Shown here in pieces: positions 1,483 through 23,969 of a DNA stretch of 64,000 nt. Numbering within the stretch: the stretch's first letter is position 1; each line of letters starts with the position of its first letter. Under the pieces are notes generated by a model. It saw only the letters and a program-made list of their open reading frames with translations, was not told where the DNA came from and did no database searches. Origin of the DNA: Vulcanimicrobiota bacterium (GTDB lineage: Bacteria > Vulcanimicrobiota > Xenobia > Xenobiales > JADMJV01); assembly GCA_050250895.1 (NCBI GenBank), contig JBFWNU010000001.1:2342210-2406209 (forward strand), read 5' to 3'. The position numbers and the translations under genes were made by a program.

Positions 1483-1516
1483 AAAACCGAGCCCGAACCC
1501 AATCTGGCTCGGTTTT
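1483..1516. terminator. Perfect 11-bp-stem hairpin AAAACCGAGCC-N12-GGCTCGGTTTT with an A-run on one side and a T-run on the other (bidirectional intrinsic-terminator-like). It overlaps the annotated TTG start of the kinase.
   Basis: Inverted repeat read directly from the sequence. It is followed by TTTTGCTTATG on the plus strand and by TTTTGACGATTT on the minus strand. Confidence 0.5.
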
Positions 1517-5256: not shown

Positions 5257-6035
5257 GGGACGATTTACGTGGTGGGGGTTTGGCGGACCTTTTAGGTGGT
5301 CTCCCCTGGACGGGGGGGAGGCTCGATGCCCAAGGGGATGGGCTCTCTGGGGTCACGAAAAATGAAAGACACCGAGGAACGAGCTTTGCTTGGGGGGCCT
5401 CAATCACGACGTGACCCGAGGTATGGGGCGTGGATGGGTCGGGGAGGCGGACCCGTTGCGCTCCACACTTTTCCCGAGCGTGGCTTTTCGGGACCCTCAA
5501 GAATGTGGGCGACGAAGCGGAAAGGTTCCGCCTGTCCCCCGAACGTCGGAGCGAGTTTGCCAGCACGGAGAGAAGAGTCTCTTGACCGGGAGCGGGGGCG
5601 CGCAGCCCCCCAGCGTGCGCGGCCATCACCGCGTTCAGGCCTTCACCCACCAGCCACTGTTCGGCCGCGTTGCGTGCCGCCTGGAGCCACAGCTCGACGG
5701 CCTCAGGCTCTTGGTTGGTGCTTCTTTGCAGCTCCTGAACTCCTGGCCCCGGGCGACCAGATCCTTTTCCCAGGCACCCACCCTCAGGATCGAGGTAACG
5801 GCTGGTCGTCGGCGGAGTTTCAATGGCCGGGACAAGCTCGGTCTTGGAGACAAAGTTGGCGGCTTCGTTTGAGTCGAGACGGACCGTTTTAGCATGAGTT
5901 TGGTGGCCAGAGTCTCTCGGGCATTCGATGCTACGCGATGTAAAGTTGGCGGCGTCGATCCCGCTCGCATCCGGGCTTTCTTGAAGGAGGACAAAGATCG
6001 GGCTTGATGCCAAGGTCACGCCTCATTTCTCACGT

Positions 6036-6563
6036 CTACGGGCCTACGATATCACCGAGGTGGAAAAATGTGGGGGCTCCGCCCGGGTCGACAATAGTCA
6101 GCCGATGGTCGGGATAACACCATTCACGAGTTTGACTCTGGGTGGAGGGCGTCCTGACCGGCGGCTCACCCAGGACCTCAGTGACCCGATTCAGGTTCTT
6201 TAGGTCTTCTTCGTCGCTCCAAGCCTCTTCGGCCAAGGGTTCGCCATCCTGCTCCAAATTGGCTCCCGCCACACCACAGACTCGGTCCTCGGAGTCGAGC
6301 TTCAATCGCGTAAAATCGGAAAACCCGAAGTATCCCGGTTCCGTGCCGAAAGCCAGTATTGGATCGTCTCCGCGAGGCTCACCTCGTCGTGCGATGACTT
6401 CTTCCCTGGTCATTCCCAGACAGACCCCATTGATGGCAAGTCCTCTCACGGTTTTGCTAGAGGGTCTGGCGGTCCGATTTCCGATGGTGTCGAGAGGCGA
6501 ACCAGGCGGGATCACAATCTCGCCGTGGGGGGCTCTGGGCCCGTCGTCCGAGCTGTAGGGCAA
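6036..6563 (-). CDS. Hypothetical protein; paralog of the adjacent ORF (shared GMTREEV...EWCYP motifs)
   Basis: The ORF is 175 aa. INGVCLGMTREEVIARRGEP and EWCYPDHRLTI mirror IGGVTLGMSREQVTSQLGL and EWCYPNPCPVW in the upstream ORF. It has no signal peptide in its own frame. Confidence 0.4.
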   Translation of the reverse strand: MPYSSDDGPRAPHGEIVIPPGSPLDTIGNRTARPSSKTVRGLAINGVCLGMTREEVIARRGEPRGDDPILAFGTEPGYFGFSDFTRLKLDSEDRVCGVAGANLEQDGEPLAEEAWSDEEDLKNLNRVTEVLGEPPVRTPSTQSQTREWCYPDHRLTIVDPGGAPTFFHLGDIVGP

Positions 6564-7067
6564 CTCCCAGGTCTCGAAATACTTGCGTCCAAGGTTCCGT
6601 CTGTGAGTGCGAGAAAACCAATCTTCTTAGTTTCGTAACCAAAGAGTCTTACGAGCACGCGCTGTTTCTCATTCGGTAGCTCGTAAAAGAGGGAATCACC
6701 ATCCTCGCTTACAGAGGACGGGTGGCCGAACGACGCGGCGAACCCTTCCAGGGTGCCTCCTACTTGGGCCACGAGCTTGTGGTTCTGTGATAAGAAGCTG
6801 CCCTGAACGGCCACCACACCTTGACCCATGAGGAAGCATCGCCACACAGGACATGGGTTGGGATAGCACCATTCGTTCTCCATCGGACCAAAAGATAGCC
6901 CGAGTTGCGATGTCACCTGTTCTCGAGACATGCCGAGCGTGACCCCACCGATGTCGAACGGCTTGGTAGATGGCTTCTGGATAGAGGCCACGCTGGCTCG
7001 CGGACCTGCTGCCCAGGAGCGCAACAACGATGACGACAGCGACGAACCAGCGGGCACGACCGAGCAT
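6512..7067 (-). pseudogene. Probable frameshifted secreted paralog. A signal-peptide-like start (MLGRARWFVAVVIVVALLGSRSA, frame of 6696..7067) is out of frame with the mature-domain ORF 6512..7057.
   Basis: Two overlapping minus-strand ORFs in different frames. The hydrophobic N-terminus is present only in the short frame. The conserved domain lies in the long frame, which starts MPAGSS... with no signal peptide. Confidence 0.35.
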
Positions 7068-7180
7068 GCAAGAGGATTCGGTTTATCACCGGGTTTGACC
7101 TACGGCAAGCGTGTGCCAATGGCTAGGCGGCCGCAGGAGGAGGCTCCGAAAATAGGGAATCTTCAAGTGTCGGAGGACGT

Positions 7181-7984
7181 ATGAAGAAGCAGTTCGTCGC
7201 CTGTTCGCTGTTCTTGGCACTGTCGCTCTCAGCGGGAGCGCAAACGATGGGACCGTGCGGACCGTGCGGTCCAGGCGGGGGGTCGAGCCCTGGCTTCAAC
7301 CCCGGCGCCCCCATGTTGGGCCCCGGCCAGAGCGGTCCGGGCAGCGACCGGAATGCGGGCCCGCAAGCACGTTTTCGCAGCGACGATGATGTCTTCGACT
7401 ACATCCGTCAGAACTACGGCGGTAACGCCAATCAGGCCCGCCAGGACCCACGCGTCACCAGCTGGATGAAGGGCCTCGAGGGAGAAGCTCGTTACGTCTT
7501 TCAAGACCGGCTGGATCGAGCCCACGATTTCTCGGGCGACCCCACCCTGACCCGCATCACCGGCACCGCGACCAACGACTACTACTGTCACGATTTCGCC
7601 TGGCGCCAGGGTGACAAGTCGCCCCCGGCCGGCGGTCATATCAACCCCGACCCCATCCTGGCCGACCCGGCCCGGTATGGTTACGAAGTTGTCTCGGCGT
7701 CGAGTGCCCAGGCCGGTGACATCGTCGTGTATCATCAGAGCGACGGCGGCAAGGCCGACCACTCGGGCCTGGTGGTCCGGGTTCAAGACGGCAATACCTA
7801 TATGATCAGCAAGGATGTGGGCAACTCACTATTCCGTCATCAACTCGACAGCCCGCCGGGAAGTCCGAACTTCTTTCGCGGCGCCTACGGTTCCGAGGGG
7901 GTGACCATCCTGCGGCCGGGACCTTACGCTGTAAAACCGACCGCCGGTTCCGAGGCACCTCCGCCGGCTGCCTCAGGACCGTAA
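7181..7984 (+). CDS. Secreted protein with a Gly/Pro-rich linker and a CHAP/NlpC-P60-like putative cysteine peptidase domain
   Basis: Signal peptide MKKQFVACSLFLALSLSAGAQT. The RBS GGAGGACGT precedes the ATG. Cys in NDYYCHDFAW and His in GDIVVYHQSDGGKADHSGLVV are arranged like a papain-fold CHAP domain. Confidence 0.5.
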   Translation: MKKQFVACSLFLALSLSAGAQTMGPCGPCGPGGGSSPGFNPGAPMLGPGQSGPGSDRNAGPQARFRSDDDVFDYIRQNYGGNANQARQDPRVTSWMKGLEGEARYVFQDRLDRAHDFSGDPTLTRITGTATNDYYCHDFAWRQGDKSPPAGGHINPDPILADPARYGYEVVSASSAQAGDIVVYHQSDGGKADHSGLVVRVQDGNTYMISKDVGNSLFRHQLDSPPGSPNFFRGAYGSEGVTILRPGPYAVKPTAGSEAPPPAASGP

Positions 7985-8025
7985 GAGACCGCGCAAGCCG
8001 TTCGGGGATACCTGACCCGCCGCCT

Positions 8026-8640
8026 CTACAGTCGAGCCCTCAAGAACTCGAGCAGCTCTTCCAACTCGGGTGCGCAGCCCCGCCCAAGGTTCAGATTGGC
8101 GTCGGCCGTGACTCGCCGCAGGGTGGTGCCCCCGTCCAGTGCCTGACCGAGCACCAGATAGTCCGCCAATTGCAGGTCATCATCGAGCAGAACGACGGAG
8201 AAATGGGGAGCCAGGATCGTGCCCTTCAGCTTCTCGAGCAGCGTCTCCTCCGACGCTGTCTCCAGGTCCGCGACCTGTAACGGTGGGAACTTGGGGTAGC
8301 CGATGATTCGGTATTGTAGGCCTTCTTTGAGAGTGCCCGAATCCCCCGACACCGCACTGAACTCTTTGGCGAATTCCTCATCAGGCTCAAAGCCTGCCAT
8401 GATGGCCGAGCCTTGGCAGCAAAGAATGCCCGCCAATCTTGGCTTGGCCACAAGCATTTTGAAGTTCCCGCCAACCTCATCGTGATAGAGGTAGTAGGGA
8501 AGGAGCGAATAGGCTGCCGTGTAGCAAACCTGCTTGGAATCCGGACGGTCGGACTTCTTCTCTTTTTTGAAGAGCGAACTCAATGGTTCTCCGTGGCCTC
8601 CTTTCGTATCGACTCTCGCTTCAAAGCACCCGCGGCCCAA
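8026..8640 (-). CDS. Hypothetical protein (204-aa ORF). The true start may be an internal Met (MLVAKPRLAGILCC...).
   Basis: Long ORF in a lower-GC stretch with no recognisable motif. Confidence 0.4.
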   Translation of the reverse strand: MGRGCFEARVDTKGGHGEPLSSLFKKEKKSDRPDSKQVCYTAAYSLLPYYLYHDEVGGNFKMLVAKPRLAGILCCQGSAIMAGFEPDEEFAKEFSAVSGDSGTLKEGLQYRIIGYPKFPPLQVADLETASEETLLEKLKGTILAPHFSVVLLDDDLQLADYLVLGQALDGGTTLRRVTADANLNLGRGCAPELEELLEFLRARL

Positions 8641-11088: not shown

Positions 11089-12981
11089 TCACTCCAGCAG
11101 GCGACGGAACTCGGCGGCCCGGTCGTGGAAGCGGCGTTGCCATAGTTCGAGGCAGACCAGGCCCCAGAGCTTGCGGCCAAAGCGGGGCTCGGCGTCGAGG
11201 CCCGCCAGCACCTGGTGATGGTCGACATAGTCGCGCTCCCGGCTGAGCAGGTCGCGCACGAAGTCGCGGGCGGGGCCCTGGAACCACTCGGCCACCGGGG
11301 TGGGAAAGCCCATTTTGTCCTGGCGCTGGGCGATCTCTTTGGGCACGTAGCCGCCCATGGCGTTGCGAAAGACGTGCTTGAGGGTGCCGTCGCGAAACTT
11401 GACGCTGGCGGGCATGGTGGCGGCCAGTTCGACCATGGGGTGGTCGAGCAGCGGCACCCGCGACTCGAGGCCGTGGGCCATGCTGACCCGGTCCTCGACG
11501 TGCAGCAGGGCCGGCAACAGCGTCTTGAAGTCGAAGTTGGTCATCAGGTCGAAATACGAATCGCGCCGCACGTTGGGCCCGTAGAAGATCGACGAGAACA
11601 CCTCGAAGGGCGAGTATTCGGGCAGCTGGTCCCAGCGGATCTCGTCGCGCAGGGTCTGGGCCCGGTCGACCAGGCGAAAATAGCGCCGGTCCATCGACTC
11701 GAACAGGCCCTCTGACCAGAAGCTCTGCAGCAGCGGCTTGTAGTTGCGCAGGGCGGTCAGGTTGGGGATGATCGACTCGTAGGTGACCACGAAGTTGCCG
11801 TTGTGCATGGTGCCGTCGATGGCGGCTTTGATGCACTGCTCGAAATAGGCGATCAGATAGCGGGTGTAGCCTCCGAAGAGCTCGTCGCCGCCCTGGCCTC
11901 CGAGCACCACCTTGCGATGGCGGGCGGCCTCGCGGCTGACCACGAACTGCGAGAACGAGCCGGGGCCGGCCACCGGATAGTCGAGATGGTAGATGACCTT
12001 CTCGATGTCGGCCAGAAAGTCGTCGACGGTGATGTCGACCGAAATCAGCTCGAAGTGGTGGCGGTCTGACACCAGTTTGGCATAGGCACTCTCGTCGTAC
12101 TCGGGGCCCAGGTCAAAGCGCCCGTGAAACCCCACGAAGGGGCGGCTGCGCTCGGCCGCCAGGCTGGCCACCAGACTCGAGTCGAGGCCTCCGGAAAGGT
12201 AGGCTCCCAGGGGCACGTCGGCCCGCAAGTGCAGCTCGATCGACTCGTGGACCAGATCATTTAAGCGGCGCTCGAAGTAGAGCTCGGTGTGCTCGAGGTC
12301 GACCCCGTAATAGACCTCCCAGTAGCGGCGCGTGCGGGTGCCCTCGGCGTCGCGCCAGAGCAAGTGGCCGGCCTCGAGCTCGCGCACCTGACGAAAGAGG
12401 GTCTTGCCGGCCAGACAGAACTGAAAGACCAGATAGTCCATCAGGCCTTCGTTGTCGGTGGCCACCTCGGGCAGAAAGGGCAGCAGCGCCTTGGGCTCGG
12501 AGGCGAAATAGAAGACTCCCCCCTGCTCGGTGTAGTAGAACGGCTTGATCCCGAAGCGGTCGCGGGCGCAAAACAGGCGCTGGTTGGCCTCGTCCCAGAG
12601 GGCGAAGCTGAACATGCCGCGCAGCTTGTCGAGGACCGCCTCGCCCCAGCGGCGATAGCCCACCAGGATGACCTCGGTGTCGCAGGTGGTGCGAAAGTTC
12701 TCTTCGCCAAGCTCCTGGCGCAGCTCGAGATAGTTGTAGATCTCGCCGTTGTAGGTCAGGTAGTTGCCGTGGCCGTCGCTCATGGGCTGGGCCCCGCCCT
12801 CGAGGTCGATAATCGACAGGCGGCGGTGGGCCAGACCCAGGCGGCCGCTGGGGTGAGTCCAGACTCCGTGGCCGTCGGGGCCGCGGTGGGCCAGCAGATC
12901 GTTCATGACGGTCAGGCCACGTTCGAGGTGGGGGAGGGGGCCGGGACTCACGATTCCGGCAATGCCGCACATAGAGAACAA
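11089..12981 (-). CDS. Asparagine synthase (glutamine-hydrolysing) family amidotransferase (AsnB-like)
   Basis: N-terminal Ntn nucleophile MCGIAGIV. The synthetase domain carries the PP-loop YLSGGLDSS. Length is 630 aa. It is divergent from the carbamoyltransferase operon. Confidence 0.85.
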   Translation of the reverse strand: MFSMCGIAGIVSPGPLPHLERGLTVMNDLLAHRGPDGHGVWTHPSGRLGLAHRRLSIIDLEGGAQPMSDGHGNYLTYNGEIYNYLELRQELGEENFRTTCDTEVILVGYRRWGEAVLDKLRGMFSFALWDEANQRLFCARDRFGIKPFYYTEQGGVFYFASEPKALLPFLPEVATDNEGLMDYLVFQFCLAGKTLFRQVRELEAGHLLWRDAEGTRTRRYWEVYYGVDLEHTELYFERRLNDLVHESIELHLRADVPLGAYLSGGLDSSLVASLAAERSRPFVGFHGRFDLGPEYDESAYAKLVSDRHHFELISVDITVDDFLADIEKVIYHLDYPVAGPGSFSQFVVSREAARHRKVVLGGQGGDELFGGYTRYLIAYFEQCIKAAIDGTMHNGNFVVTYESIIPNLTALRNYKPLLQSFWSEGLFESMDRRYFRLVDRAQTLRDEIRWDQLPEYSPFEVFSSIFYGPNVRRDSYFDLMTNFDFKTLLPALLHVEDRVSMAHGLESRVPLLDHPMVELAATMPASVKFRDGTLKHVFRNAMGGYVPKEIAQRQDKMGFPTPVAEWFQGPARDFVRDLLSRERDYVDHHQVLAGLDAEPRFGRKLWGLVCLELWQRRFHDRAAEFRRLLE

Positions 12982-13050
12982 CTACGCGTCGGGCGCCAAA
13001 CGACCTTCAGGCGGCGGAGGAACTCGAACGGTCGACTCAAAGATAACAGG

Positions 13051-13452
13051 GTGAAAGAAGACCTCGCCGCCAATCGCCGCGCCGGGGTGATCCAGGCCCT
13101 GGTGGCGGGCCTGGTGGGTGGCTTGTCTTTTCACTTCTGGCGGGTCGAGGTGGCCTATGTCGCTTTCGGCTTTTGCGGCCTGTTTCTGGTGGCCGGGCTG
13201 TTCTCTCCTGGAGGGCTCTATCCGGCCATTCGCAAGGTCTTTGACGGCTTCGGTCGGGTCGTGGGCACGGTGCTGACCTGGGTCTTGCTGGTGCCTACCT
13301 ACTGGCTGTTTTTTACTCCCTTTCACCTGCTCTTTCGCCGCGGCAGCCGCGATTCGATGACTCGCCGGCTCGATAAAGAGGCAGCCTCGTATTGGATCGA
13401 GCGCAGCGGTCAGGTGCCCGAGCCCGAGAGCTACGAGCGGCAGTTTCGATGA
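13051..13452 (+). CDS. SxtJ-like small membrane protein (partner protein of carbamoyltransferases)
   Basis: These are the last 133 codons of ORF-track entry 12289..13452, whose 5' part is antisense to asnB. GTG at 13051 (residue 255) begins VKEDLAANRRAGVIQALVAGLVGGLSFHFW...LTWVLLVPTYWLFFTPFHLLFRRGSRD, which has two hydrophobic segments. It overlaps the carbamoyltransferase ATG by 4 nt. Confidence 0.5.
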   Translation: MKEDLAANRRAGVIQALVAGLVGGLSFHFWRVEVAYVAFGFCGLFLVAGLFSPGGLYPAIRKVFDGFGRVVGTVLTWVLLVPTYWLFFTPFHLLFRRGSRDSMTRRLDKEAASYWIERSGQVPEPESYERQFR

Positions 13453-15269
13453 ACATTCTCGGCATCAGCGCCTTTTACCACGACTCGGCCGCCTGCCTGG
13501 TCGAGTCGGGCCGCATCGTGGCCGCCGCTCAGGAGGAGCGCTTCACCCGCAAGAAAGCCGACGCCGACTTTCCTTACGAGTCGGTGCGCTACTGCCTGAG
13601 CCAGATGCAGGGCGAGCTGGCGGCGGTCGCCTTTTATGATAAGCCGTTGACCAAGTTCCATCGCATCCTCGAGACCTATCTTTCGGTGGCTCCCCGGGGT
13701 CTCAAGCCTTATCTGCAGGCCGTGCCCCTGTGGTTGCGCGAGAAGCTGTGGATTCATCCTCAGATCCAGCAGGCGCTCGAGCAATGCGGGGTCAAGGCTC
13801 CCGAGCAGTTCTACTTTCCCGAGCACCACGAATCGCACGCCGCCAGCGCCTTTTATCCCAGCCCGTTTCAAGAGGCGGCCATCGTCACCCTCGACGGAGT
13901 GGGCGAGTGGACCACCACCAGCATCGCCGTGGGCGAGGGCAACCAGGTTCGCATGGTGCGCGAGCTGCACTTTCCTCATTCGCTGGGAATGTTGTATTCG
14001 GCTTTCACCTACTATACCGGCTTCAAGGTGAATTCGGGCGAGTATAAACTGATGGGACTGGCTCCCTACGGCCAGCCCACCTATGTTGACAAGATCAAGG
14101 ACCACCTCATCGACATCAAGGCCGACGGCTCGTATCGGCTGAATATGGACTACTTCGCGTATCTTGACGACCTGGTGATGGTCAATGAGCGCTTTCACCA
14201 GCTTTTCGGAGGCGAACCGCGTCAGGCCGAGTCGCCTTTGACCCGGCGCGAGATGGACCTGGCCGCCTCGATCCAGGTGGTGACCGAAGAGGTGGTGCTA
14301 AAGATAGCCGCCCATGCCCGCGAGCTGACCGGCAAAGCCAACCTTTGTCTGGCCGGCGGGGTGGCCCTCAACTGCGTGGCCAACGGTCGTCTGCTGCGGG
14401 AGGGGATTTTCGACGACCTTTGGATTCAGCCGGCCGCGGGCGATGCCGGCGGAGCGCTGGGAGCGGCCATGTTGGTCTGGCACCAGATTGAAGGCAAGCC
14501 GCGCCAGGCCGGCCCCACCGATCAGATGCAGGGAGCCTATCTCGGGCCTGAATATAGCCCTGAGGAGATCCGCGCCTTTCTGGACGAGCACGGCTACGTC
14601 TATGAAGAACTGGCGCCCCAGGAGTGGGCCAGCCGGTTGGCCGAGATCCTCGACGGCGAGAACGTCATCGGCTTGCTCCAGGGGCGCATGGAGTTTGGCC
14701 CGCGGGCGCTGGGCAATCGCTCGATTATCGGTGATGCCCGCTCGCCCAAGATGCAGGCGGCCATGAACCTCAAGATCAAGTACCGCGAGAGCTTTCGCCC
14801 GTTCGCTCCCAGTTGTCTGGAGGAGTGCATCGGCGAGTATTTCGAACTCGACCGGCCCTCGCCTTACATGCTGCTGGTGGCCCAGGTCCAGCCAGAGCGT
14901 TGCGTGCCGCCCCAGGGCGACGAGCGCGAGCTGGAGGTGCGCGAGTGGGTCAACCGCCCGCGCTCGGATATTCCGGCCATTACCCACGTCGATTTTTCGG
15001 CCCGGGTTCAGTCGGTCAATCAGACCACCAATCCCAGCTATTACGCTCTGCTCAAGGCTTTTCAAGCGCGCACCGGTTTTGGCATCATCACCAACACCAG
15101 TTTCAACGTGCGCGGAGAGCCCATCGTGTGCACGCCTGAGGACGCCTATCGCTGTTTTATGCGCACCGAGATGGACTATCTGGTGCTGGGGCCGTTTCTG
15201 TTGGCCAAGCCCGCCCAGCCCGAGTGGAAAGAAACCAAAAAGTGGCAAGAAGACTTCGTGCTGGATTGA
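13449..15269 (+). CDS. Carbamoyltransferase (NodU/CmcH/SxtI family)
   Basis: Starts at the internal Met of the ORF (MNILGISAFYHDSAACLVESGRIVAAAQEERFTRKK), the characteristic N-terminus of this family. About 606 aa. Confidence 0.85.
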   Translation: MNILGISAFYHDSAACLVESGRIVAAAQEERFTRKKADADFPYESVRYCLSQMQGELAAVAFYDKPLTKFHRILETYLSVAPRGLKPYLQAVPLWLREKLWIHPQIQQALEQCGVKAPEQFYFPEHHESHAASAFYPSPFQEAAIVTLDGVGEWTTTSIAVGEGNQVRMVRELHFPHSLGMLYSAFTYYTGFKVNSGEYKLMGLAPYGQPTYVDKIKDHLIDIKADGSYRLNMDYFAYLDDLVMVNERFHQLFGGEPRQAESPLTRREMDLAASIQVVTEEVVLKIAAHARELTGKANLCLAGGVALNCVANGRLLREGIFDDLWIQPAAGDAGGALGAAMLVWHQIEGKPRQAGPTDQMQGAYLGPEYSPEEIRAFLDEHGYVYEELAPQEWASRLAEILDGENVIGLLQGRMEFGPRALGNRSIIGDARSPKMQAAMNLKIKYRESFRPFAPSCLEECIGEYFELDRPSPYMLLVAQVQPERCVPPQGDERELEVREWVNRPRSDIPAITHVDFSARVQSVNQTTNPSYYALLKAFQARTGFGIITNTSFNVRGEPIVCTPEDAYRCFMRTEMDYLVLGPFLLAKPAQPEWKETKKWQEDFVLD

Positions 15270-15288
15270 CAGAATAGAGCCAGAGACC

Positions 15289-15450
15289 ATGAAACTAAGC
15301 TATCTTGGAAAGCTGCTCAAAGAGCTCTATCTGTTCGCCAAGAAAGAGAAGGCCTACTGGATCGTGCCGCTGGTGCTGATGCTGCTGCTCTTCTCGGTGC
15401 TGGTGGTCACGGGGCAAACGGTGGCTCCCTTTATCTACACCCTGTTTTGA
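15289..15450 (+). CDS. SxtK-like small membrane protein (DUF5989-like; carbamoyltransferase-associated)
   Basis: Internal ATG of ORF 15079..15450 gives MKLSYLGKLLKELYLFAKKEKAYWIVPLVLMLLLFSVLVVTGQTVAPFIYTLF (53 aa, one TM). It starts 20 nt after the carbamoyltransferase stop. Confidence 0.55.
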   Translation: MKLSYLGKLLKELYLFAKKEKAYWIVPLVLMLLLFSVLVVTGQTVAPFIYTLF

Positions 15451-16700
15451 CCCCCGATTACGTGCTGGGGTGCCTGGGCCGCTATTGGCCCACCGGCGGG
15501 CGGCTGATTCTCGAGCTTCCCCTGGTCCAGCATACCCGCGGAGGTCATCAGCTGCGCCTGGTGTCGCTGCCGGATTGGCACCCCGGCGAGTTGTTGGTGC
15601 CGGCCTGGGCCGCTCCCGAGGGTGACTGGGAGCGGGTGGACTGGCTGGGGGCGGCCATGTGGTTTTTGCACGGTCAGGCCGAGCGCGATCTCGAGCGGGT
15701 GCACGGGCCGGTCCACTCCTACAGTCTGCGCCTGGATCTCGACTCGCGCATGTGGGATAAAGCCTGGGTCAACCGCATCGCGCTCTTTTTGCGAGCCTGG
15801 GTGGCCCATCGTCTGGGCCAGAGCGAGGCCGAGTTGTTCGGGCCCAGGCCCAAGGCCGAATTTATGCTCACCCACGATGTGGACGCGGTGGCCAAGACCG
15901 TGGCCATCCGCGGCAAGCAGACTGCCTTCCATCTGTTCAACGGGCTCCGTCAACTGGCCCGCGGTCGCCTGGGAGGAGCGGTGGCGGCCTGGCGGCGCGC
16001 GGTGCAGTTCTCGGTCTCGGCCGAAGATTATTGGTGTTTCGAGTGGCTGATGGCGCTCGAGGCCGCTCATGGCGTGACCAGCCACTACAACTTCTATGGC
16101 GGACCCGGCGGATGGGGGCGGGATCCCGTGCGCCTGCTGCTCGACCCGGCCTACAACGTGGACCACCCGCGCCTGCGCGAGGTGCTGGCCCGACTGGTGA
16201 CCGCCGGCCACGCGGTGGGTTTGCACCAGTCTTTTCACGCCTGGCAAGACGCCGCTTCCATGGCGCGCGAGAAGGCTCGCCTCGAGGCGGCCCTGGGCCG
16301 GCCGGTCAAGGAGTGCCGCCAACACTGGTTGCGTTTCTCCTGGCAGCACACATGGCAGGCTCAGCAAGAGGCTGGATTGACCCTTGACAGCACTCTGGGC
16401 TTCAACGACCGGCCCGGATTTCGCACGGCCGGGGCCCTGCGCTACCATCCCTGGGACCCCGAAACCGGCCGGCCCATGGGCCTGGAAGTGGTGCCGATGG
16501 TCTTGATGGATTCGCATCTCTACGATTATCTGGGTCTTGACGACGAGGCCGAGCGACGCCGCCACATCGACCACTGGCTCGACGAGGTGATGGCGGTGGG
16601 CGGCGTGGCCAGCCTGACCTGGCACCAGCGGGTGGTCAGCCAGGACTATGGCTGGGGACCGGGCTACGAGCACGTGCTGGCCCGAGTGGCCCCCCGCTGA
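15447..16700 (+). CDS. Polysaccharide deacetylase-like protein (ArnD/NodB-type fold suggested)
   Basis: An HDVD motif (LTHDVDAVAKT) resembles the D-x-D metal site of NodB/ArnD deacetylases. Length is 417 aa. The start overlaps the previous gene's stop. Confidence 0.45.
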   Translation: MTPDYVLGCLGRYWPTGGRLILELPLVQHTRGGHQLRLVSLPDWHPGELLVPAWAAPEGDWERVDWLGAAMWFLHGQAERDLERVHGPVHSYSLRLDLDSRMWDKAWVNRIALFLRAWVAHRLGQSEAELFGPRPKAEFMLTHDVDAVAKTVAIRGKQTAFHLFNGLRQLARGRLGGAVAAWRRAVQFSVSAEDYWCFEWLMALEAAHGVTSHYNFYGGPGGWGRDPVRLLLDPAYNVDHPRLREVLARLVTAGHAVGLHQSFHAWQDAASMAREKARLEAALGRPVKECRQHWLRFSWQHTWQAQQEAGLTLDSTLGFNDRPGFRTAGALRYHPWDPETGRPMGLEVVPMVLMDSHLYDYLGLDDEAERRRHIDHWLDEVMAVGGVASLTWHQRVVSQDYGWGPGYEHVLARVAPR

Positions 16701-16737
16701 GAGAAGGTCACCGGGTTTGGGCGCCGAAAACAGCGGT

Positions 16738-18234
16738 ATGACAAGGGTTCTGCGAGCGACCGACCTGTCCGAGCACATGCACGAGGATTGGGCCGAGGCC
16801 AAACGTCCCATTCGGGTGCTATTGATCCAGCCTCCTACCTCGGGTTGTGTGCGCTCCCTTTTGCCGCAGGTCGAGCAAGACGGCGAGGGTATCGGCTTCA
16901 AGCCTCCCCTGGGGTTGCTGTATGTGGCCAGCATGACGGCCGCCTCGACCCCCCACGAGGTGAAGGTTATCGACGCTATCGGCCAGCGCAAGAGCTTCGA
17001 TGACCTGGTGGCCGAGGCCAGGGCGTTTGAGCCCGACCTCATCGGCATTTCGGCCTGGACCGACTGGTGGTATCCGGCCTATCACACCGGCGAGTTGCTC
17101 AAGGAGGCCCTGCCCAAGGCCCACCTTTGCTACGGCGGGCCCCACGTCAGCATCTATGCCCAGGCTACCCTGGACGTTCCGTTTGTCGACAGCGTGATCG
17201 TGGGTGACGGCGAGGTTCCTTTTATGTGCCTGGCCAACATGCTGGCTAACGACAAGCTCGACAACCGGCTGCCCGGACTGCATCTAAAGCAGCACGGGGT
17301 GAAAGAGTGCCAGCAGTTCTTCATTCACGACGACCTCGACAACCTGCCTCTACCCGACCGTCGCATGTTGCCGCTCGAGCCTTACAGCTCGGTGCTGGGC
17401 AAAGGTCGCCTTTTGACTACGATGGTGACCAGCCGCGGTTGCCCCCACAAATGCACCTTCTGCAAGCTCAACTTCCAGAAGACCCTGTGTCGCTCGGCCG
17501 ACAACGTGCTGCGCGAGTTCGAAGACATCCACTCGCTGGGCATCAAGGAGGTCGAGCTCTACGACGACACCTTCACCTGGGCGCGTCAACGGGTGCTCGA
17601 TATCTGCCAGGGCTTGATCGACCGCCAGCTCGGCCTCGAGTGGGCCGTGCGTGACAGGGTTAGCAACGCCCGCGTCGATCTGCTCGACCGCATGTACGCG
17701 GCCGGCTGCCGCCGCGTTCACTACGGTATCGAATCGGGAGTCGACCGGGTGCTCGAGAAGATGCGCAAGAAGACCACCGTGCGCCTGGCCCGGCGGGCCG
17801 TGCAGATCGCCAAGGACACTGGCCTCACCGTGCTGACCTACTTCATGTTCGGCAACCTCGACGAGACCCTCGACGACATGCAGCGCACCATCGACTTTGC
17901 CCTCGAGCTCGACGCCGACTTCTGCGAGTTTTCCATCACCATCCCCTATGCCGGCACCGAGATGTACGAAGAGGCCCTCGAGACCGGCCTCATCAAAGAA
18001 GACTACTGGGCCGAATACGCCCGCAAGCCCGTGCCCGACTTCATGCCGCCCAAGCTCATCGAAACGGCGGCCAGCCTGGAGCAGCTCATCGAGATTCGCA
18101 ACCGGGCCGTGCGCAGCTTCTATTTCCGCCCTAAGTACATCATCAATCAGGCCCGCAAGGTCACCAACCCCGTCGAGTTCTTGCGCAAGGCCAAAATGGG
18201 CGGCAAACTCTTCAATTCGGTCTATGCCAGGTAA
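16738..18234 (+). CDS. Cobalamin-binding (class B) radical SAM enzyme
   Basis: N-terminal B12-binding-like region (RVLLIQPPTSG...). The radical-SAM cluster motif is SRGCPHKCTFC. The start is taken at the internal ATG (MTRVLRA); the ORF track begins at 16648 and overlaps the upstream gene. Confidence 0.8.
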   Translation: MTRVLRATDLSEHMHEDWAEAKRPIRVLLIQPPTSGCVRSLLPQVEQDGEGIGFKPPLGLLYVASMTAASTPHEVKVIDAIGQRKSFDDLVAEARAFEPDLIGISAWTDWWYPAYHTGELLKEALPKAHLCYGGPHVSIYAQATLDVPFVDSVIVGDGEVPFMCLANMLANDKLDNRLPGLHLKQHGVKECQQFFIHDDLDNLPLPDRRMLPLEPYSSVLGKGRLLTTMVTSRGCPHKCTFCKLNFQKTLCRSADNVLREFEDIHSLGIKEVELYDDTFTWARQRVLDICQGLIDRQLGLEWAVRDRVSNARVDLLDRMYAAGCRRVHYGIESGVDRVLEKMRKKTTVRLARRAVQIAKDTGLTVLTYFMFGNLDETLDDMQRTIDFALELDADFCEFSITIPYAGTEMYEEALETGLIKEDYWAEYARKPVPDFMPPKLIETAASLEQLIEIRNRAVRSFYFRPKYIINQARKVTNPVEFLRKAKMGGKLFNSVYAR

Positions 18235-18240
18235 CGCTTA

Positions 18241-19452
18241 GTGATCCCACGTTTGCGGCCTCCCTTTGGCCTGCTCGAGCTGGCCCTGGCGGCCGTCCCT
18301 CGCCCCGGATACGACGAAGCTCGTTTCGAGCAGGCGTTTGCCAATAAGTTTGGCTTTGAGCACGGGCTGTTCTTTCCTTACGGGCGCAGTGCGCTCTACG
18401 CGCTACTCAAGGTTCGCGGCCAGGACCGCCAGGTGGTCATGCCCGCTTATACTTGCTCGGTGGTGGCCCATGCGGTGGCTTTGTCGGGCAACAAGCCGGT
18501 CTTTGTCGACTGCGGCCAAGAGCACTTCAACATGCCGCCCGCCGCCCTCGAGCCAGCGCTTGACGAGCAAACCTCGATGGTCATCCTGACGCCCATCTTC
18601 GGCTATCCCATCGAACGCCGCGATTGCGAGGCGGTCATCAAGAAGAAGTCGCCCGACGCCTTCGTGCTTTACGACCTGGCCTATGCCTTCGGGGTTCACG
18701 ACAAGCGAGGTCCTCAGGCCCAGGAGGCCGACGCGGCCCTCTTCGGCCTGGGCATCGGCAAGCAGCTCTCGACCCTTTTCGGAGGCATCTTGCTGCTGCG
18801 AGACCCCGAGCTCTATCAGGCGGTCAAGGAATTTCGCGACCAGACCTTCAAGAAGCCCGGCCGGCTGGCCGGGCTCAACAAATTCAGCTATGGCAAGGCC
18901 GTCTACTTTGCTTTTCGTGAGCCGTTCTTGAGCCTGGTCGACCTGCTCGAGCGCAAGACCCCGCTGCTCAATCGCTTCACCCGCCACTATTACGGCGTCG
19001 ACGGCATCGCCATGCCGGCCGATTTTCAGGTCAGGCCGACGGCTCTGCAAGCTCGGCTGGGATTGTCGCAGCTCGAGCGCTACGACCAGATCGAGACCCA
19101 GCGCTGGGCCATCGGCCAACGCTACGAACTCAAGCTGGCTCAGGCGGGCTTCAAGGTTTTCGAGGGCCAGGAGAGCCAGACTTATTCGCATTTTCCCCTG
19201 GCAGTGGCCGAGCGGGACAGGGTCATCGCTGCCATGCTCGACAAAGGCGTGGGCCTGGGCAAGCTGATCGACTACAGCTGCCCTTGCCTGCCGGGCTATG
19301 ACTACTCGCCCGACGCTCATCCCCACTCCTACTGGTTCTCGCAGCATCTCGTCAATTTGCCCTGCTGGCCCGGCATGACGGTCGCCCAGGTCGACCAAGT
19401 GATCGAGGCGCTCGGCGCCTGCCGCGACCAGTCGCCCAAAGATTTCCTGTGA
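18241..19452 (+). CDS. DegT/DnrJ/EryC1/StrS-family PLP-dependent sugar aminotransferase
   Basis: Family-typical N-terminus (FEQAFANKFGFEHGLFFPYGRSALYALLKV...VVMPAYTC) and a length of 403 aa. Confidence 0.8.
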   Translation: MIPRLRPPFGLLELALAAVPRPGYDEARFEQAFANKFGFEHGLFFPYGRSALYALLKVRGQDRQVVMPAYTCSVVAHAVALSGNKPVFVDCGQEHFNMPPAALEPALDEQTSMVILTPIFGYPIERRDCEAVIKKKSPDAFVLYDLAYAFGVHDKRGPQAQEADAALFGLGIGKQLSTLFGGILLLRDPELYQAVKEFRDQTFKKPGRLAGLNKFSYGKAVYFAFREPFLSLVDLLERKTPLLNRFTRHYYGVDGIAMPADFQVRPTALQARLGLSQLERYDQIETQRWAIGQRYELKLAQAGFKVFEGQESQTYSHFPLAVAERDRVIAAMLDKGVGLGKLIDYSCPCLPGYDYSPDAHPHSYWFSQHLVNLPCWPGMTVAQVDQVIEALGACRDQSPKDFL

Positions 19453-21257
19453 ACCGCTGGCTGGTGCTGGTGGGTCTGGCCTTTTGTGCCTACGCCGTGG
19501 TGGCCCTGGGCGACTTCAAGGTGTTGCTGGCCACTACCCACGGCGACGACGGGCCGGTCGTCTACGCCGACTATGCGGCTCATCCCGATCGCTACCAAAA
19601 GGACATCCTGGCCATCTATGCGCCGGTGCAACTGCGGGCCACGGCCCAGAACTGGCTGCCGGTGCGGCTGCGACCCATCCTCTCGCCCGAGCGCTTCGCC
19701 TGGCTGATGGCCTTTCTCCAGATGGCCTTGCTCGGGCCGGCCGCCTGGCTGCTGGCCTATAATCTCAGCAGCGACCGCTGGGTGGCCTGGGTCTATCCGC
19801 TCTGGTTGGCCTCGACCTTTGCCTGGGAGTGGAACCTGGCCAACTACGACACCAGCCTCCATCTGCCTTATCCCGCCCAATTGGGCTTTTCCCTAACGTT
19901 GCTGGCCTTCGGTCTGGCCCTGGCCGAGAAGCCCTGGCCCGCTCTAGCAGTGCTGGCGGTGGTGGCCCTCTTTCACCCGGTGTTGACCCTGCTCGGCGGC
20001 CTGGTGCTGGGCCTGACCTGGTGGCGCCGCCAACAGCTGGCGGTCGCGCCGATGCTGGGATTGGCGGCAGCGCTGGCCCTGGCGGTGGGGCCGGCGCTCT
20101 TGCTGGCGTCCTCGGTCGAACAACTGGGACGCCCCGAGATGCTCGAAGGCATGCGGGTCAATCAGCACGTCTCGCCGTGGAACTTTCCCCAGGTGTTCTG
20201 GCCGCGTTGCTGGACCCTGCTGGGCTTTGTCGTCCTCTATGCTCTGGCCTGGAAGGACCAGAGCGAACCCGGCCGCGCTCTGGGCACGGCCACCCTGGTG
20301 GTGGTGGTTCTCTTTGCCGGCTCGCATCTAGTCGGCGGCTGGTTGGGCATTCCCTTCCTGCTAAAGCTGATCGGCTTGCGCTCGACGCAGCTGATGGTCC
20401 TGTTCGGATTGCCCGTGGTGCTGGCCTATTTGGGCGGGCGCCTGGACGGCTCGACTCGCGAACGCTGGGCAGCCCTGACGCTGCTGCTCTTACTCGGCCT
20501 CTTTCGCCGGGGCTTTTTCTGGGGACCGCTGCTGGTGCTGGTGGCCGAGCGCCTCGGCTGGAAAGGGCTGGCCCGGGGCGTGGCGGTGGGCTGGAGCAGC
20601 CTGGTGATCATCCTGGTCTTAGGCGGCCTGCTGGTCGACCCCATCCTGTTTCGAGGCGCCCTGGTGTTGATGCCCGGCCTGGTACCCACCCGGCCGGTGG
20701 TGTTGCTCGTATTGCTGGTGGCGCTGGCCTGGTTGGTGGCCAGCCTTCCCCGCCACACTCGCCGTCTGGCGGTGGTGTTGGTGGGAGTGCTGGCTCTCTA
20801 CAGCGCCGTCGAGTTGGGCCAGAAGTCGCATTCGCCCAAGGCGGTAGCCCTCTATCAGGCTCAGACCTGGAGTGCGGCCAATACGCCCGAGACGGCCAGG
20901 TTCGTCGAGTTCGCCGGCACCTGGCGCAACCTGGCTCATCGCTCTACCGTCAACCCGCGGGCCTCGGTCTGGTATCTCTACTCGGGCGACGCTCGCCTGC
21001 GGGTCTTCGACGACGCCTATCTGCGCTTCTATGGTCTGGAAGATGCCTTTCGGCGCGACACCCAATGGTCGCTGTATCTCAAGCAGATGCGAGCCTTCTA
21101 TACTCTCGACGAGGCAGGGGTGAAGGCCCTGGTCGACCAGTTCGGGGGCGACTATCTGGTTCACGACAAGACCGTCGGCCCGCCGCGCTTGAGCTTTCCG
21201 GTGGCCTACGAGAACGACGCCTACGTCATTTATCGGGTGGGTAACCCAGGCTCGTGA
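19449..21257 (+). CDS. Polytopic membrane protein, putative GT-C-fold glycosyltransferase (ArnT/PMT-like architecture: about 12 TM helices plus a roughly 150-aa C-terminal soluble domain)
   Basis: Many hydrophobic helices. An acidic HGDDGP motif sits in the first extracytoplasmic loop after TM1, where GT-C enzymes carry their DD/DE motif. The start overlaps the aminotransferase stop. Confidence 0.45.
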   Translation: MNRWLVLVGLAFCAYAVVALGDFKVLLATTHGDDGPVVYADYAAHPDRYQKDILAIYAPVQLRATAQNWLPVRLRPILSPERFAWLMAFLQMALLGPAAWLLAYNLSSDRWVAWVYPLWLASTFAWEWNLANYDTSLHLPYPAQLGFSLTLLAFGLALAEKPWPALAVLAVVALFHPVLTLLGGLVLGLTWWRRQQLAVAPMLGLAAALALAVGPALLLASSVEQLGRPEMLEGMRVNQHVSPWNFPQVFWPRCWTLLGFVVLYALAWKDQSEPGRALGTATLVVVVLFAGSHLVGGWLGIPFLLKLIGLRSTQLMVLFGLPVVLAYLGGRLDGSTRERWAALTLLLLLGLFRRGFFWGPLLVLVAERLGWKGLARGVAVGWSSLVIILVLGGLLVDPILFRGALVLMPGLVPTRPVVLLVLLVALAWLVASLPRHTRRLAVVLVGVLALYSAVELGQKSHSPKAVALYQAQTWSAANTPETARFVEFAGTWRNLAHRSTVNPRASVWYLYSGDARLRVFDDAYLRFYGLEDAFRRDTQWSLYLKQMRAFYTLDEAGVKALVDQFGGDYLVHDKTVGPPRLSFPVAYENDAYVIYRVGNPGS

Positions 21258-22260
21258 AATAGTCGGCCAGTTGCTGGGCCACGAATTGGTTGCCGGCGGG
21301 GGTATGGTGGATGAAGTCCACATACATGCCTTCTCGACCCCGCTCGTCAAAGGCGTGGCGAAGGTCGAGGTAGTGCACATGCTCGCGCCCTTCGGCCGCC
21401 CCCGCCAGCACCGCGTTGAGGTCTACGATGAGGTGCTCCCAGAGGTCGACGTAGCCGGTGAAGTCTTTCCAGTGGGGCAGGTTGGCGTTGCGAGCCGGGT
21501 CGGCCCCCGAATAATAGAACGGGTCGATGGGCAGCAAGACCACCTCGGTCTCGGGTCCGATCTGATCCAGCCATTGCGGCAACTGTTCTTTAAGGTAGGC
21601 AATCAGCCGGTCGTCGGGGTAGGCCTGGTGGTTTTCGCGGCTCAGGTGCCGGCGGGCGGCCACATAGTAGAACAGAGCTAGAGCGTGAGGCCGGGGCGGC
21701 TCGCCCCCGGCCAGGCGCACCTGGGCCCAGGTGACCTCGGGCGACCAGCGCTCGCGAAATTGCGTCAACAGCGACATGTCGTTAGCCGCCTGCACGGTCA
21801 ACAGCCTGGTCTTGACCCTGGGAGCCACCTCGATGCGATAGCGAGCAAACGACTGGCGCAGGTTATAGGAAGGCACCCCGGCGTTGAGCACCTGCCCCGG
21901 ATAGCGCTCGCCGAGGTAGGCGGAATAGGTCTCGTCATCACCGACTCCGGAACCGAAGGGCACCGAGTCGCCCAGGCACACGATGCGAGTGTCAGGCCCT
22001 GGGGGCCGCCCGCGAAAGCCCTGCTCATTGATGTGCACCCCCGAGTGATCGCCCGGCTTGAGAGTGTAACCGCGCTCGTCGTCGACGGGCACGGCGTAGC
22101 CGACCTTGAACTGCTGGGTGGGAGCCGGCTGCCAGACGAAGCGCCCCTGGGTAAGGCGAAAGTGAATCTGCAAGAGCAACTCGAGTCCCACCAACCCCAG
22201 CAGGCTGGTGATGATCACCAGAGCTAGAGCCAGTTGCCAGCGTTTGGGTTCGGACTCCAT
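21226..22260 (-). CDS. Membrane-anchored SGNH/GDSL-family hydrolase
   Basis: Start taken at the internal Met (MESEPKRWQLALALVIITSLLGLVGLELLL, a TM anchor). The GDS motif is CLGDSVPFGSG. The upstream 103 codons of the ORF-track entry overlap the divergent gene and are probably not translated. Confidence 0.6.
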   Translation of the reverse strand: MESEPKRWQLALALVIITSLLGLVGLELLLQIHFRLTQGRFVWQPAPTQQFKVGYAVPVDDERGYTLKPGDHSGVHINEQGFRGRPPGPDTRIVCLGDSVPFGSGVGDDETYSAYLGERYPGQVLNAGVPSYNLRQSFARYRIEVAPRVKTRLLTVQAANDMSLLTQFRERWSPEVTWAQVRLAGGEPPRPHALALFYYVAARRHLSRENHQAYPDDRLIAYLKEQLPQWLDQIGPETEVVLLPIDPFYYSGADPARNANLPHWKDFTGYVDLWEHLIVDLNAVLAGAAEGREHVHYLDLRHAFDERGREGMYVDFIHHTPAGNQFVAQQLADYFTSLGYPPDK

Positions 22261-23283: not shown

Positions 23284-23540
23284 CAGGTGGTGCCGGATTC
23301 GGCACGTGGTAGCGCCGTACTCGGCCGAGGTTGCTCTTCCGTGCGGAAGTCGGCTTGCCCGCGACCGTGGTCGAGCCACCCAGGCTGGTCGGCGGCGGTA
23401 CGGCACCAGGTGGTGCCGGATTCGGCACGTGGTAGCGCCGTACTCGGCCGAGGATGCTCTTCCGTGCGGAAGTCGGCTTGCCCGCGACCGTGGTCGAGCC
23501 ACCCAGGCTGCCGGCGGCGGTACGGCACCAGGTGGTCGCC
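23284..23540. repeat. Tandem repeat of about 123 bp with about 2.1 copies. Each unit contains the hairpin GTGCCGgattCGGCAC.
   Basis: Read directly. The unit starts CAGGTGGTGCCGGATTCGGCACGTGGTAGCGCCGTACTCGGCCGAGG. It is related to motifs at 1037-1064. Confidence 0.75.
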
Positions 23541-23923
23541 AGGACGCTCACCCCACGCCCCCAAAGCCCTCTCCGTGCCCTCCTGATCTCCGCGGTTTAC
23601 TTCTCAGGCGCGCCACTGGCGAGCCGCACCGACCTGTGCTTCGACCACGCGCCGCGCCGCCACGACAGACGCGCCGCGGTATTCCCAATCTCGTGCGCCC
23701 AGCCCCCCTCAGCGCCTTTGCGAGCTCTGCGGTTTTGTCAACGAGCGCTGCCCTCGGCCAACGCCCACCTCTCCGTGAACTCCGAGACCTCCGTGTTGGT
23801 ACGCCAGCCCCCGCGCCCCCCGCGGAACTCCGCGGTGCCCCCAAAAGCGCCTGCCTTCGAGATACTTCGCCCCTCGAGGCGCCTTTGCGACCTTGGCGGT
23901 TTTCCCCACCAGCCCTCCACTGG

Positions 23924-23953
23924 CTTGACCGTCAAAAGGCCTGTCGATATACT
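23924..23953 (+). promoter_or_regulatory. Sigma70-like promoter TTGACC-N17-TATACT ending about 17 nt before the miaB ATG (short or absent leader)
   Basis: Read directly; coordinates are accurate to about 1 nt. Confidence 0.5.
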
Positions 23954-23969
23954 GCACTGGGTGAATGCG

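Follow-up and report, generated by a model that had tools for sequence, protein, structure and literature searches.

A putative membrane-coupled carbamoylation module of a carbamoyltransferase, a divergent SxtJ protein and a DUF5989/SxtK microprotein in a Vulcanimicrobiota bacterium

Introduction

In all saxitoxin gene clusters, sxtI, sxtJ and sxtK are adjacent core genes (PMC5132012), and their products are regarded as acting together (PMC2679770, PMC12300590, PMC5132012), with no homologue of SxtJ or SxtK characterised (PMC2885083). Here we describe the same three families, a carbamoyltransferase of the NodU/CmcH type, a membrane protein of the SxtJ family (PF19588) and a microprotein of the DUF5989/SxtK family (PF19451), as adjacent and co-oriented genes in a stretch of 64,000 nucleotides (nt) from a Vulcanimicrobiota bacterium (assembly GCA_050250895.1, contig JBFWNU010000001.1, positions 2,342,210 to 2,406,209 of the forward strand). 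This whole stretch is called the window, and coordinates refer to it. Hereafter, CT designates the carbamoyltransferase, J the gene of 133 amino acids (aa) upstream of it, K the 53-aa gene downstream, S an SGNH-type partner, and the trio CT, J and K together. The bare triad is not new, as it has been named sxtI/J/K since 2008, has its Pfam families and RefSeq names, and is widespread. In the original 2008 description of the sxt cluster, homologues of sxtJ and sxtK were reportedly often found beside O-carbamoyltransferase genes. Relative to the sxt clusters, the window copy has a divergent J, of a subfamily below the reach of the Pfam model unlike the SxtJ of those clusters, and the rare order J-CT-K instead of I-J-K, and it is found in a cell-envelope glycan operon, not in an alkaloid toxin cluster. 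In the sxt clusters, the trio has the GDSL/SGNH gene sxtL as a neighbour, and about half of the loci analysed in this work likewise have an SGNH gene next to it.

Small membrane proteins also feature in systems that acylate envelope polymers. DltX, a protein of 49 aa with a single helix, carries the acyl-shuttle motif FXYXXF at its extracytoplasmic C-terminus (FIYNEF), and the MBOAT protein PatA ends in the same motif (FIYANF); the invariant Tyr passes a D-alanyl or acetyl group to the catalytic Ser of the membrane-anchored SGNH protein DltD or PatB (PMC12148441, PMC13653941). In the Dlt, Pat and OatA systems, an MBOAT or AT3 protein is the component that brings the acyl group to the shuttle Tyr. 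Our search of the literature found no link between DltX or the acyl shuttle and carbamoyltransferases, SxtK or DUF5989, and to our knowledge a carbamoyl-tyrosine intermediate has never been reported.

The window itself adds nothing new to the bare triad; its value lies in the mechanism that comparison with related loci suggests. Three points are new: a recurrent SGNH partner, a shuttle motif at the C-terminus of K, and the fact that no MBOAT protein is present in the operon.

Results

The trio opens a tightly packed operon of sugar-modifying enzymes on the forward strand, with J at 13051..13452 (GTG start at 13051, TGA at 13450-13452, 133 aa), CT at 13449..15269 (ATG start, 606 aa, soluble) and K at 15289..15450 (ATG start, TGA at 15448-15450, 53 aa). 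An alignment-based metagenome scan starting from CT yielded 80 loci at 55-68% identity, whose six-frame open reading frames (ORFs) were scanned with hidden Markov models (HMMs) built from the alignments; the main counts refer to the 45 loci in which CT is flanked by 1 kb or more on each side. Both J and K are on the CT strand in 38 of these 45 loci, with 27 in the order CT-J-K, 9 in the order J-K-CT and 2 of the 38 complete triads in the window order J-CT-K. J is present in 43/45 loci. The remaining seven comprise four with J only, one with a reversed J fragment and two with neither partner, and most truncated loci are compatible with the observed gene orders. A scan of genome contigs with the single CT sequence gave only six loci, as exact peptide words are too specific; both partners are found in every untruncated locus among these six. 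Conversely, starting from relatives of J or K, a CT gene adjoins in all sufficiently long contigs (Nitrospira, Balneola-like and others) except one, L018. In Aquisphaera (A. giovannonii), RefSeq lists 'carbamoyltransferase / SxtJ family membrane protein / DUF5989 family protein', a public naming of the trio that the original prediction had missed. Four Balneola-like loci (L014-L017) harbour the trio in the order CT-K-J, alone between the housekeeping genes yicC/gmk/rpoZ/coaBC and DinB/msrB and with no polysaccharide cluster around it; their J, of 129 aa, has no Pfam match.

The conserved triad put forward in the original prediction is thus borne out by these co-occurrence counts, and homologues of the small proteins do sit beside carbamoyltransferases elsewhere, across phyla. 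As the trio persists through permutations of gene order and when it stands alone among housekeeping genes, the gene neighbourhoods provide strong evidence that it is a functional unit. No fusions between J, K and CT were found among the best database matches, and the top matches of J and K are single-domain proteins. Longer database entries for J or K (P0233 and others) had been considered as fusions but were discarded as over-extended gene calls.

L018 and L099 depart from this picture. In L018 (ENA ERZ25070844), positions 5368-8475 contain SxtJ and DUF5989 genes without CT, followed by DDE and IS66 transposases and the defence-associated DruA, a layout suggestive of a module broken up by insertion sequences. 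Located 4.7 kb downstream, on the opposite strand, is an AlgX-like SGNH gene that belongs to the partner family described below. The second is L099, on the megaplasmid of Ralstonia solanacearum (CP052107.1, 1851578-1865404), with a CT 55% identical to that of the window, a 68-aa mini-J, an SGNH protein without membrane anchor, and no DUF5989. Its gene order is iron-containing redox enzyme, CT, the 68-aa 'hypothetical protein', SGNH, a second, shorter carbamoyltransferase, ATP-grasp and a major facilitator superfamily transporter. The 68-aa protein resembles only the last helix and the tail of SxtJ. Of the 475 plasmid records in which a carbamoyltransferase was matched, 133 are from Ralstonia. 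This variant of a single lineage fits with a pairing of K with outward-facing SGNH proteins.

On the basis of its profile match, K is a member of the DUF5989/SxtK family, as had been proposed: it matches PF19451 with 59.7 bits (cut-off 27, E 2.8e-16), profile positions 2-49 of 49 corresponding to residues 8-53. Its relatives form at least 7,993 clusters at 90% identity. The protein has a basic N-terminal segment, a single hydrophobic span (residues 20-50), in agreement with the one transmembrane segment foreseen for it, and an uncharged C-terminus, APFIYTLF. In 120 homologues, there are 4.6 Lys/Arg residues in the 15 aa before the helix versus 0.03 after it, and therefore K is predicted to have an N-in/C-out topology. 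Conservation in K is strongest at its very C-terminus, which is uncharged: APFIYT[ILV]F closes each of the 120 top homologues from the database, and the K proteins of the loci examined show conservative C-terminal variants only, with the Tyr and the last Phe invariant.

The last six residues of K, FIYTLF, fit the FXYXXF motif, a match that the first reading of the sequence had not noted. This ending is uncommon in our loci: of 9,813 ORFs with 40 aa or more, 70 have F.Y..F at their end, of which 68 are K genes and the rest represent one distinct ORF. K matches DltX in its size of about 50 aa, its single helix, its predicted N-in/C-out orientation and a motif that forms the last residues of the chain. 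As in the DltX/DltD and PatA/PatB pairs, the SGNH partner belongs to a family of membrane-anchored, predicted extracytoplasmic proteins, and an envelope polymer context is common to all of them. There are also differences. The Dlt and Pat systems include an MBOAT protein, whereas neither MBOAT nor AT3 proteins are found in the window operon; their donors are acyl-CoA or carrier-protein systems, whereas the donor enzyme of the window is a carbamoyltransferase; and J has no counterpart in either system. A scan of K with hmmscan at E<=10 returned DUF5989 and chance matches only, with no DltX family, and a profile search of the PDB with K retrieved no DltX or other meaningful chain.

The third element of the comparison is an SGNH family. 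It came to light with a 531-aa ORF of a Polyangiaceae metagenome-assembled genome (MAG; L006, JADJRH010000001.1, 2409-4001 of the locus, forward strand), in which an SxtJ-like N-terminal domain is joined to an SGNH/GDSL domain through an additional transmembrane helix. It is directly upstream of CT, with DUF5989 downstream, and is the only genuine fusion that we found; in it, the J tail and the SGNH domain would face different sides of the membrane. When a local iterative HMM was seeded with the SGNH domain of this fusion and with SGNH-like neighbours from further loci, a single family emerged, with members in about half of all loci. Where both flanks reach at least 3 kb (26 loci), J, K and S occur together in 13, J and K in eight, J only in three, J and S in one, and no partner in one; S, where present (14/26), is never without J and is accompanied by K in 13 of 14 cases. 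S occurs with K in 13/21 loci versus 1/5 without K, numbers that are too few for significance and that we do not use as evidence. The S gene is often inserted between CT and J/K (L010, L024, L073, L076 and L080). Of 31 S members with a recognisable GDS block, 29 have an N-terminal transmembrane helix, usually preceded by positive charges, which argues for an N-in orientation with the SGNH domain outside. The Gly and Ser of block I and the His of block V are invariant in the family alignment, and some members exceed the Pfam threshold for AlgX, an SGNH acetyltransferase. From these profile-based counts, a membrane-anchored SGNH family is a frequent fourth partner of the trio, which the first reading of the sequence had not noted.

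In the window, S is on the reverse strand at 21226..22260 (ATG at 22260, 344 aa, N-terminal transmembrane anchor), convergent with the end of the operon and 5.8 kb downstream of K. Its start was selected from the G+C content at third codon positions and from the transmembrane segment, the mechanical ORF extending to 22569. The protein scores 36.1 bits against Pfam Lipase_GDSL_2 (cut-off 32.9) and 203 bits against our locally built family HMM. In L014-L017, a 669-aa protein encoded about 4 kb from the trio matches the S family HMM with its N-terminal part and has faint GDSL and TPR Pfam matches.

The nearest solved relative of the S family is CgnD from the crocagin system (PDB 8a2n, E 2.8e-22 over nearly the full profile). 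The crocagin cluster also encodes a carbamoyltransferase, CgnI, and the authors of that work asked whether carbamoylation comes before the action of CgnD; in contrast with the N-terminal membrane anchor of the S family partners, CgnD was soluble when purified and crystallised (PMC10070186).

J proved more difficult to assign. It has no Pfam match, even at E<=10, and no NCBIfam match, and its close relatives likewise fail to match PF19588. Yet the weakest of its 14 word-sharing relatives carry PF19588, and an hhalign comparison of the J family with PF19588 members gives a probability of 99.5% (E 3.3e-22, 126 columns). A profile that includes J retrieves at least 2,908 clusters, nearly all of them PF19588 and some named 'SxtJ family membrane protein' by NCBI, and an exhaustive search with it reaches 15,845 representatives at 50% identity. 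From these profile comparisons, J can be securely assigned as a divergent SxtJ family member, below the reach of the Pfam model. The SxtJ-like nature ascribed to the upstream gene in the original prediction is therefore recovered by comparison with the family members, although not by a match to the Pfam profile.

An AlphaFold2 model of J based on a 66-sequence alignment has a predicted local distance difference test score of 88.7 and shows helices at residues 2-29, 32-51 and 56-97, followed by an extended tail. Three hydrophobic segments are found in 114 of 127 family members. Over the 127 sequences, the 15 residues that follow the last segment contain 3.4 Lys/Arg and have a net charge of +1.5, and the N-terminal flank has a net charge of -1.0; the predicted topology is therefore N-out/C-in. 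Near-invariant residues are R9, then P53, L56 and G68 in the outer loop, P90 and R96, and A111, Y114, W115, R118, Q131 and F132 in the cytoplasmic tail. The outer loop has a conserved S-P-x-x-L motif, and the basic tail has conserved ASYW and C-terminal ERQF motifs. There is no conserved polar or catalytic residue in the membrane part of J, which points to an adaptor and not to a catalyst or a channel. Thus, the substrate channel envisaged in the original prediction finds no specific support in this three-helix protein.

CT has the two-domain architecture of the stand-alone enzymes TobZ, NovN, GdmN and NodU, with strong Pfam matches to Carbam_trans_N (E 3.5e-100, 336 bits) and Carbam_trans_C (E 2.9e-70, 236 bits) and no predicted transmembrane segment. 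By these matches, it is an O-carbamoyltransferase of the NodU/CmcH/TobZ family and, by analogy with characterised members, presumably depends on ATP and carbamoyl phosphate. Its score of 144 bits against NCBIfam NF041651, with a cut-off of 1000, places it outside the NodU equivalogs. Its homologues in the PDB are NovN, GdmN and TobZ (E 1e-77 to 2e-88). Their alignments with CT end at about residue 590, short of a conserved extreme C-terminal tail, W..[ED]F.LD (15213-15269 in the window), that characterises the J/K-linked enzymes; of 98 listed related tails, several of which are cut by contig ends, 84 end in LD. This tail is a candidate docking peptide. We know of no SxtJ or DUF5989 partners of the stand-alone TobZ, NovN, GdmN and NodU.

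The J/K-linked CTs are 54-63% identical between Eremiobacterota, Nitrospirota, Bacteroidota/Balneolota, Myxococcota, Gemmatimonadota and Planctomycetota. An identity gap was found in a plasmid collection, where enzymes of the J/K-linked type are at least 52% identical to the window CT (Sinorhizobium, Ralstonia, Aquisphaera, Gemmatirosa and Photobacterium) versus at most 39% for NodU-like and antibiotic-type enzymes. Based on their sequence relationships, the J/K-linked CTs are a distinct orthologous subfamily.

J and K are real genes. Both are nested in longer mechanical ORFs: as the original prediction had it, J is the 3' third of an ORF at 12289..13452 (387 aa) whose 5' part is antisense to an asnB-like gene, and K starts at an internal ATG (15289) of an ORF at 15079..15450. 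With a G+C content of 62.6% for the whole window, the values at the three codon positions are 0.66/0.46/0.75 for J, 0.54/0.26/0.76 for K and 0.64/0.41/0.79 for CT, and 0.85/0.43/0.67 and 0.40/0.73/0.54 for the 5' extensions of the two long ORFs. Only the former fit the window genes, which favours the frames of J and K as coding and speaks against the extensions. Furthermore, a J orthologue that is 89% identical, with the same GTG start and length and the same asnB/CT surroundings, was called by NCBI in the Candidatus Eremiobacteraeota MAG GCA_020431725.1. The two small genes had been described as hidden and unannotated. They indeed have no entry of their own in the longest-ORF track, but since the J orthologue is annotated with the same start, the description applies to that track and not to the biology of the locus.

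The stop codon of J and the start codon of CT share 4 nt (ATGA at 13449), as reported before, and the ATG at 13449 was preferred to the upstream TTG at 13392 at which the ORF list opens CT. The spacer between CT and K measures 19 nt (15270-15288), and not the 20 nt given previously. The GTG of J is directly preceded by a weak AGG only, and a scan for promoters and terminators over 12800-15700 showed nothing convincing within the 69-nt gap between asnB and J.

Downstream of K, the next ORF encodes a 417-aa putative deacetylase with remote resemblance to the sugar-nucleotide deacetylase VimE (15447..16700, forward strand; NF053580 at E 5.5e-20, far below the cut-off, and no Pfam match). Its mechanical start, a TTG at 15447, overlaps the stop codon of K (TTGA), which suggests translational coupling if this TTG is the true start. 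Then follow, on the same strand, genes for a B12-binding radical SAM enzyme (16648..18234; Pfam B12-binding and Radical_SAM), a DegT/DnrJ/EryC1-type sugar aminotransferase (18241..19452; PF01041, E 1.6e-37) and, last in the operon and convergent with S, a polytopic membrane protein of 602 aa (19449..21257) whose roughly 10-12 hydrophobic spans are followed by a soluble domain of about 150 aa at the C-terminus. The latter has no Pfam match and is thus not recognisable as an MBOAT or AT3 protein, and no relative of it was found in the 100 other loci. Upstream, the divergent asnB-like gene for a glutamine-hydrolysing amidotransferase (11089..12981, reverse strand; Pfam and TIGR01536) begins 69 nt from the start of J. 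The same asnB layout is present in L001, and asnB-like genes are also found near the module in L013 and L035. The other genes of the window operon were considered as parts of the conserved module and rejected for lack of recurrence in related loci: the 417-aa protein, like the 602-aa one, has no match in other loci, and for the radical SAM and DegT genes matches are sporadic.

Elsewhere the module is found in O-antigen or exopolysaccharide clusters, with Wzy, flippase and glycosyltransferase genes in L012 and L013 and an exosortase exopolysaccharide cluster in L101. Together with the DegT, deacetylase-like, radical SAM and asnB genes of the window, these settings make a cell-envelope glycan the most likely acceptor.

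Other genes of the window are farther away. At 23454-25352 (forward strand) is a MiaB/RimO-like methylthiotransferase gene (UPF0004, Radical_SAM, TRAM) whose domains begin at about residue 185, which implies an N-terminal extension of about 180 aa or a start called too early. Upstream of the glycan operon, at 1515-5256 and 7181-7984, are genes for a Ser/Thr protein kinase (747 aa), a convergent BTAD/Trans_reg_C regulator (504 aa) and a CHAP-domain protein, which are unrelated to the trio.

Discussion

On balance, we favour the view that J and K are subunits, together with CT, of a membrane-coupled carbamoylation module, which would link cytoplasmic activation to extracytoplasmic modification. 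Judging from its predicted topology and conservation, J is probably a cytoplasmic docking adaptor: its tail (ASYW...ERQF) would be the docking element for CT, and the CT tail W..EF.LD its likely counterpart. With CT docked on this tail, carbamoylation would take place at the membrane, on a membrane-bound or exported envelope glycan. K would present FIYT[LIV]F on the outer face, beside the S-P-x-x-L loop of J. Because of the FXYXXF motif and of the frequent anchored SGNH protein, K likely carries or hands over the carbamoyl group, or positions the SGNH protein outside; by analogy with DltX, it is probably a tyrosine shuttle working with the extracytoplasmic SGNH partner. It is tempting to speculate on the full sequence of events. 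CT docked on SxtJ would load the invariant Tyr of K with carbamoyl, directly or through a J/K assembly, and the outward-facing SGNH protein would take the carbamoyl from this Tyr onto its catalytic Ser and then onto the extracytoplasmic glycan. Such a complete relay of CT, SxtJ, DUF5989 and SGNH, which would amount to an MBOAT-independent trans-membrane carbamoylation machine for envelope polymers, is a possibility that we put forward only tentatively.

A number of observations weigh against the favoured view. TobZ, NovN and GdmN have been described as direct O-carbamoyltransferases of antibiotic substrates. None of the window operon proteins has a Pfam match to MBOAT or AT3, and neither family was found in the Pfam tables of the called genes of L001-L005 and L012-L018, the other loci being unscreened. 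J has three helices only and no conserved polar residue in the membrane; without MBOAT or AT3, and with J seemingly too small to serve as a conduit, the model does not account for the path of the carbamoyl group to a Tyr on the outer face. The partners are not always together either. Five of the 45 adequately flanked loci have J but no K, and the Ralstonia variant makes do with a single-helix mini-J and a soluble SGNH protein, in the absence of K. S is not found within 3-4 kb of the module in about half of the loci, and in the window it is not adjacent, being 5.8 kb away on the other strand. Its nearest solved relative, CgnD, is a very slow leader peptidase in vitro (PMC10070186). As for the saxitoxin system, no experiment has shown a complex or an activity for SxtJ and SxtK (PMC2885083, PMC12300590), and the product of sxtL, the GDSL gene that follows sxtK, is a proposed decarbamoylase (PMC2679770). 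There, the acceptor is a small soluble alkaloid; as the module of the window belongs to a glycan operon and not to an alkaloid cluster, its acceptor must differ from that of saxitoxin synthesis.

Several of these points also fit with J and K forming a pure tether at the cytoplasmic face. CT would then modify a sugar linked to undecaprenyl phosphate, or another lipid-linked precursor, before flipping, the motif of K would be a packing or assembly element without chemistry, and the SGNH protein would be either an esterase with no relation to the module or, as proposed for SxtL, a decarbamoylase, here trimming the product. Direct transfer of carbamoyl to the final hydroxyl, as known for characterised enzymes of the family, would suffice for this, and the conserved cytoplasmic tail of J, its lack of catalytic-looking residues, the missing MBOAT/AT3 conduit in the operon and the absence of the SGNH partner from about half of the loci would all be in order. 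Nevertheless, a tether leaves without explanation the best-conserved part of K, an uncharged C-terminus predicted to be outside, and the identity of its hexapeptide with a motif that has a demonstrated acyl-tyrosine function. Nor does it account for the conserved outer loop of J or for the genes of anchored, outward-facing SGNH proteins that are inserted into the module or fused to J, and we consider it unlikely. It is still less probable that J and K are regulatory or product-export accessories rather than parts of a catalytic unit. Small membrane proteins often modulate partner enzymes, and sxtJ and sxtK have been tabulated as 'Regulatory' (PMC7073992), but no DNA-binding, sensor or transporter features were found in J and K, and their four helices in total are too few for a transporter. 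Their near-universal co-inheritance with CT and tight translational coupling, even in L014-L017, are better explained if they are subunits. The idea that J and K are mere products of chance, open frames next to a lone CT in G+C-rich DNA, might be entertained from their nesting in longer mechanical ORFs, from the GTG start of J with its weak AGG and from the lack of a promoter-like site in the 69-nt gap. Its probability is practically negligible, given codon-position G+C values like those of real genes, the database relatives of J (15,845) and of K (at least 7,993), their conservation beside carbamoyltransferases across phyla, and the confident model of J. This spurious-ORF reading was discarded.

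SxtJ and SxtK have been of 'unknown function' since the description of the sxt cluster, yet they belong to very large families associated with one conserved CT subfamily. If a mechanism based on an FXYXXF tyrosine shuttle and an outward-facing SGNH partner is correct, it would give a function to two large orphan families, SxtJ and DUF5989. It would also show how bacterial surface polymers are carbamoylated outside the cytoplasm and would call for a revision of the last step of the saxitoxin pathway. The acyl-tyrosine shuttle of the Dlt, Pat and OatA systems would then extend to carbamoyl, across at least 8,000 DUF5989 clusters in many phyla.

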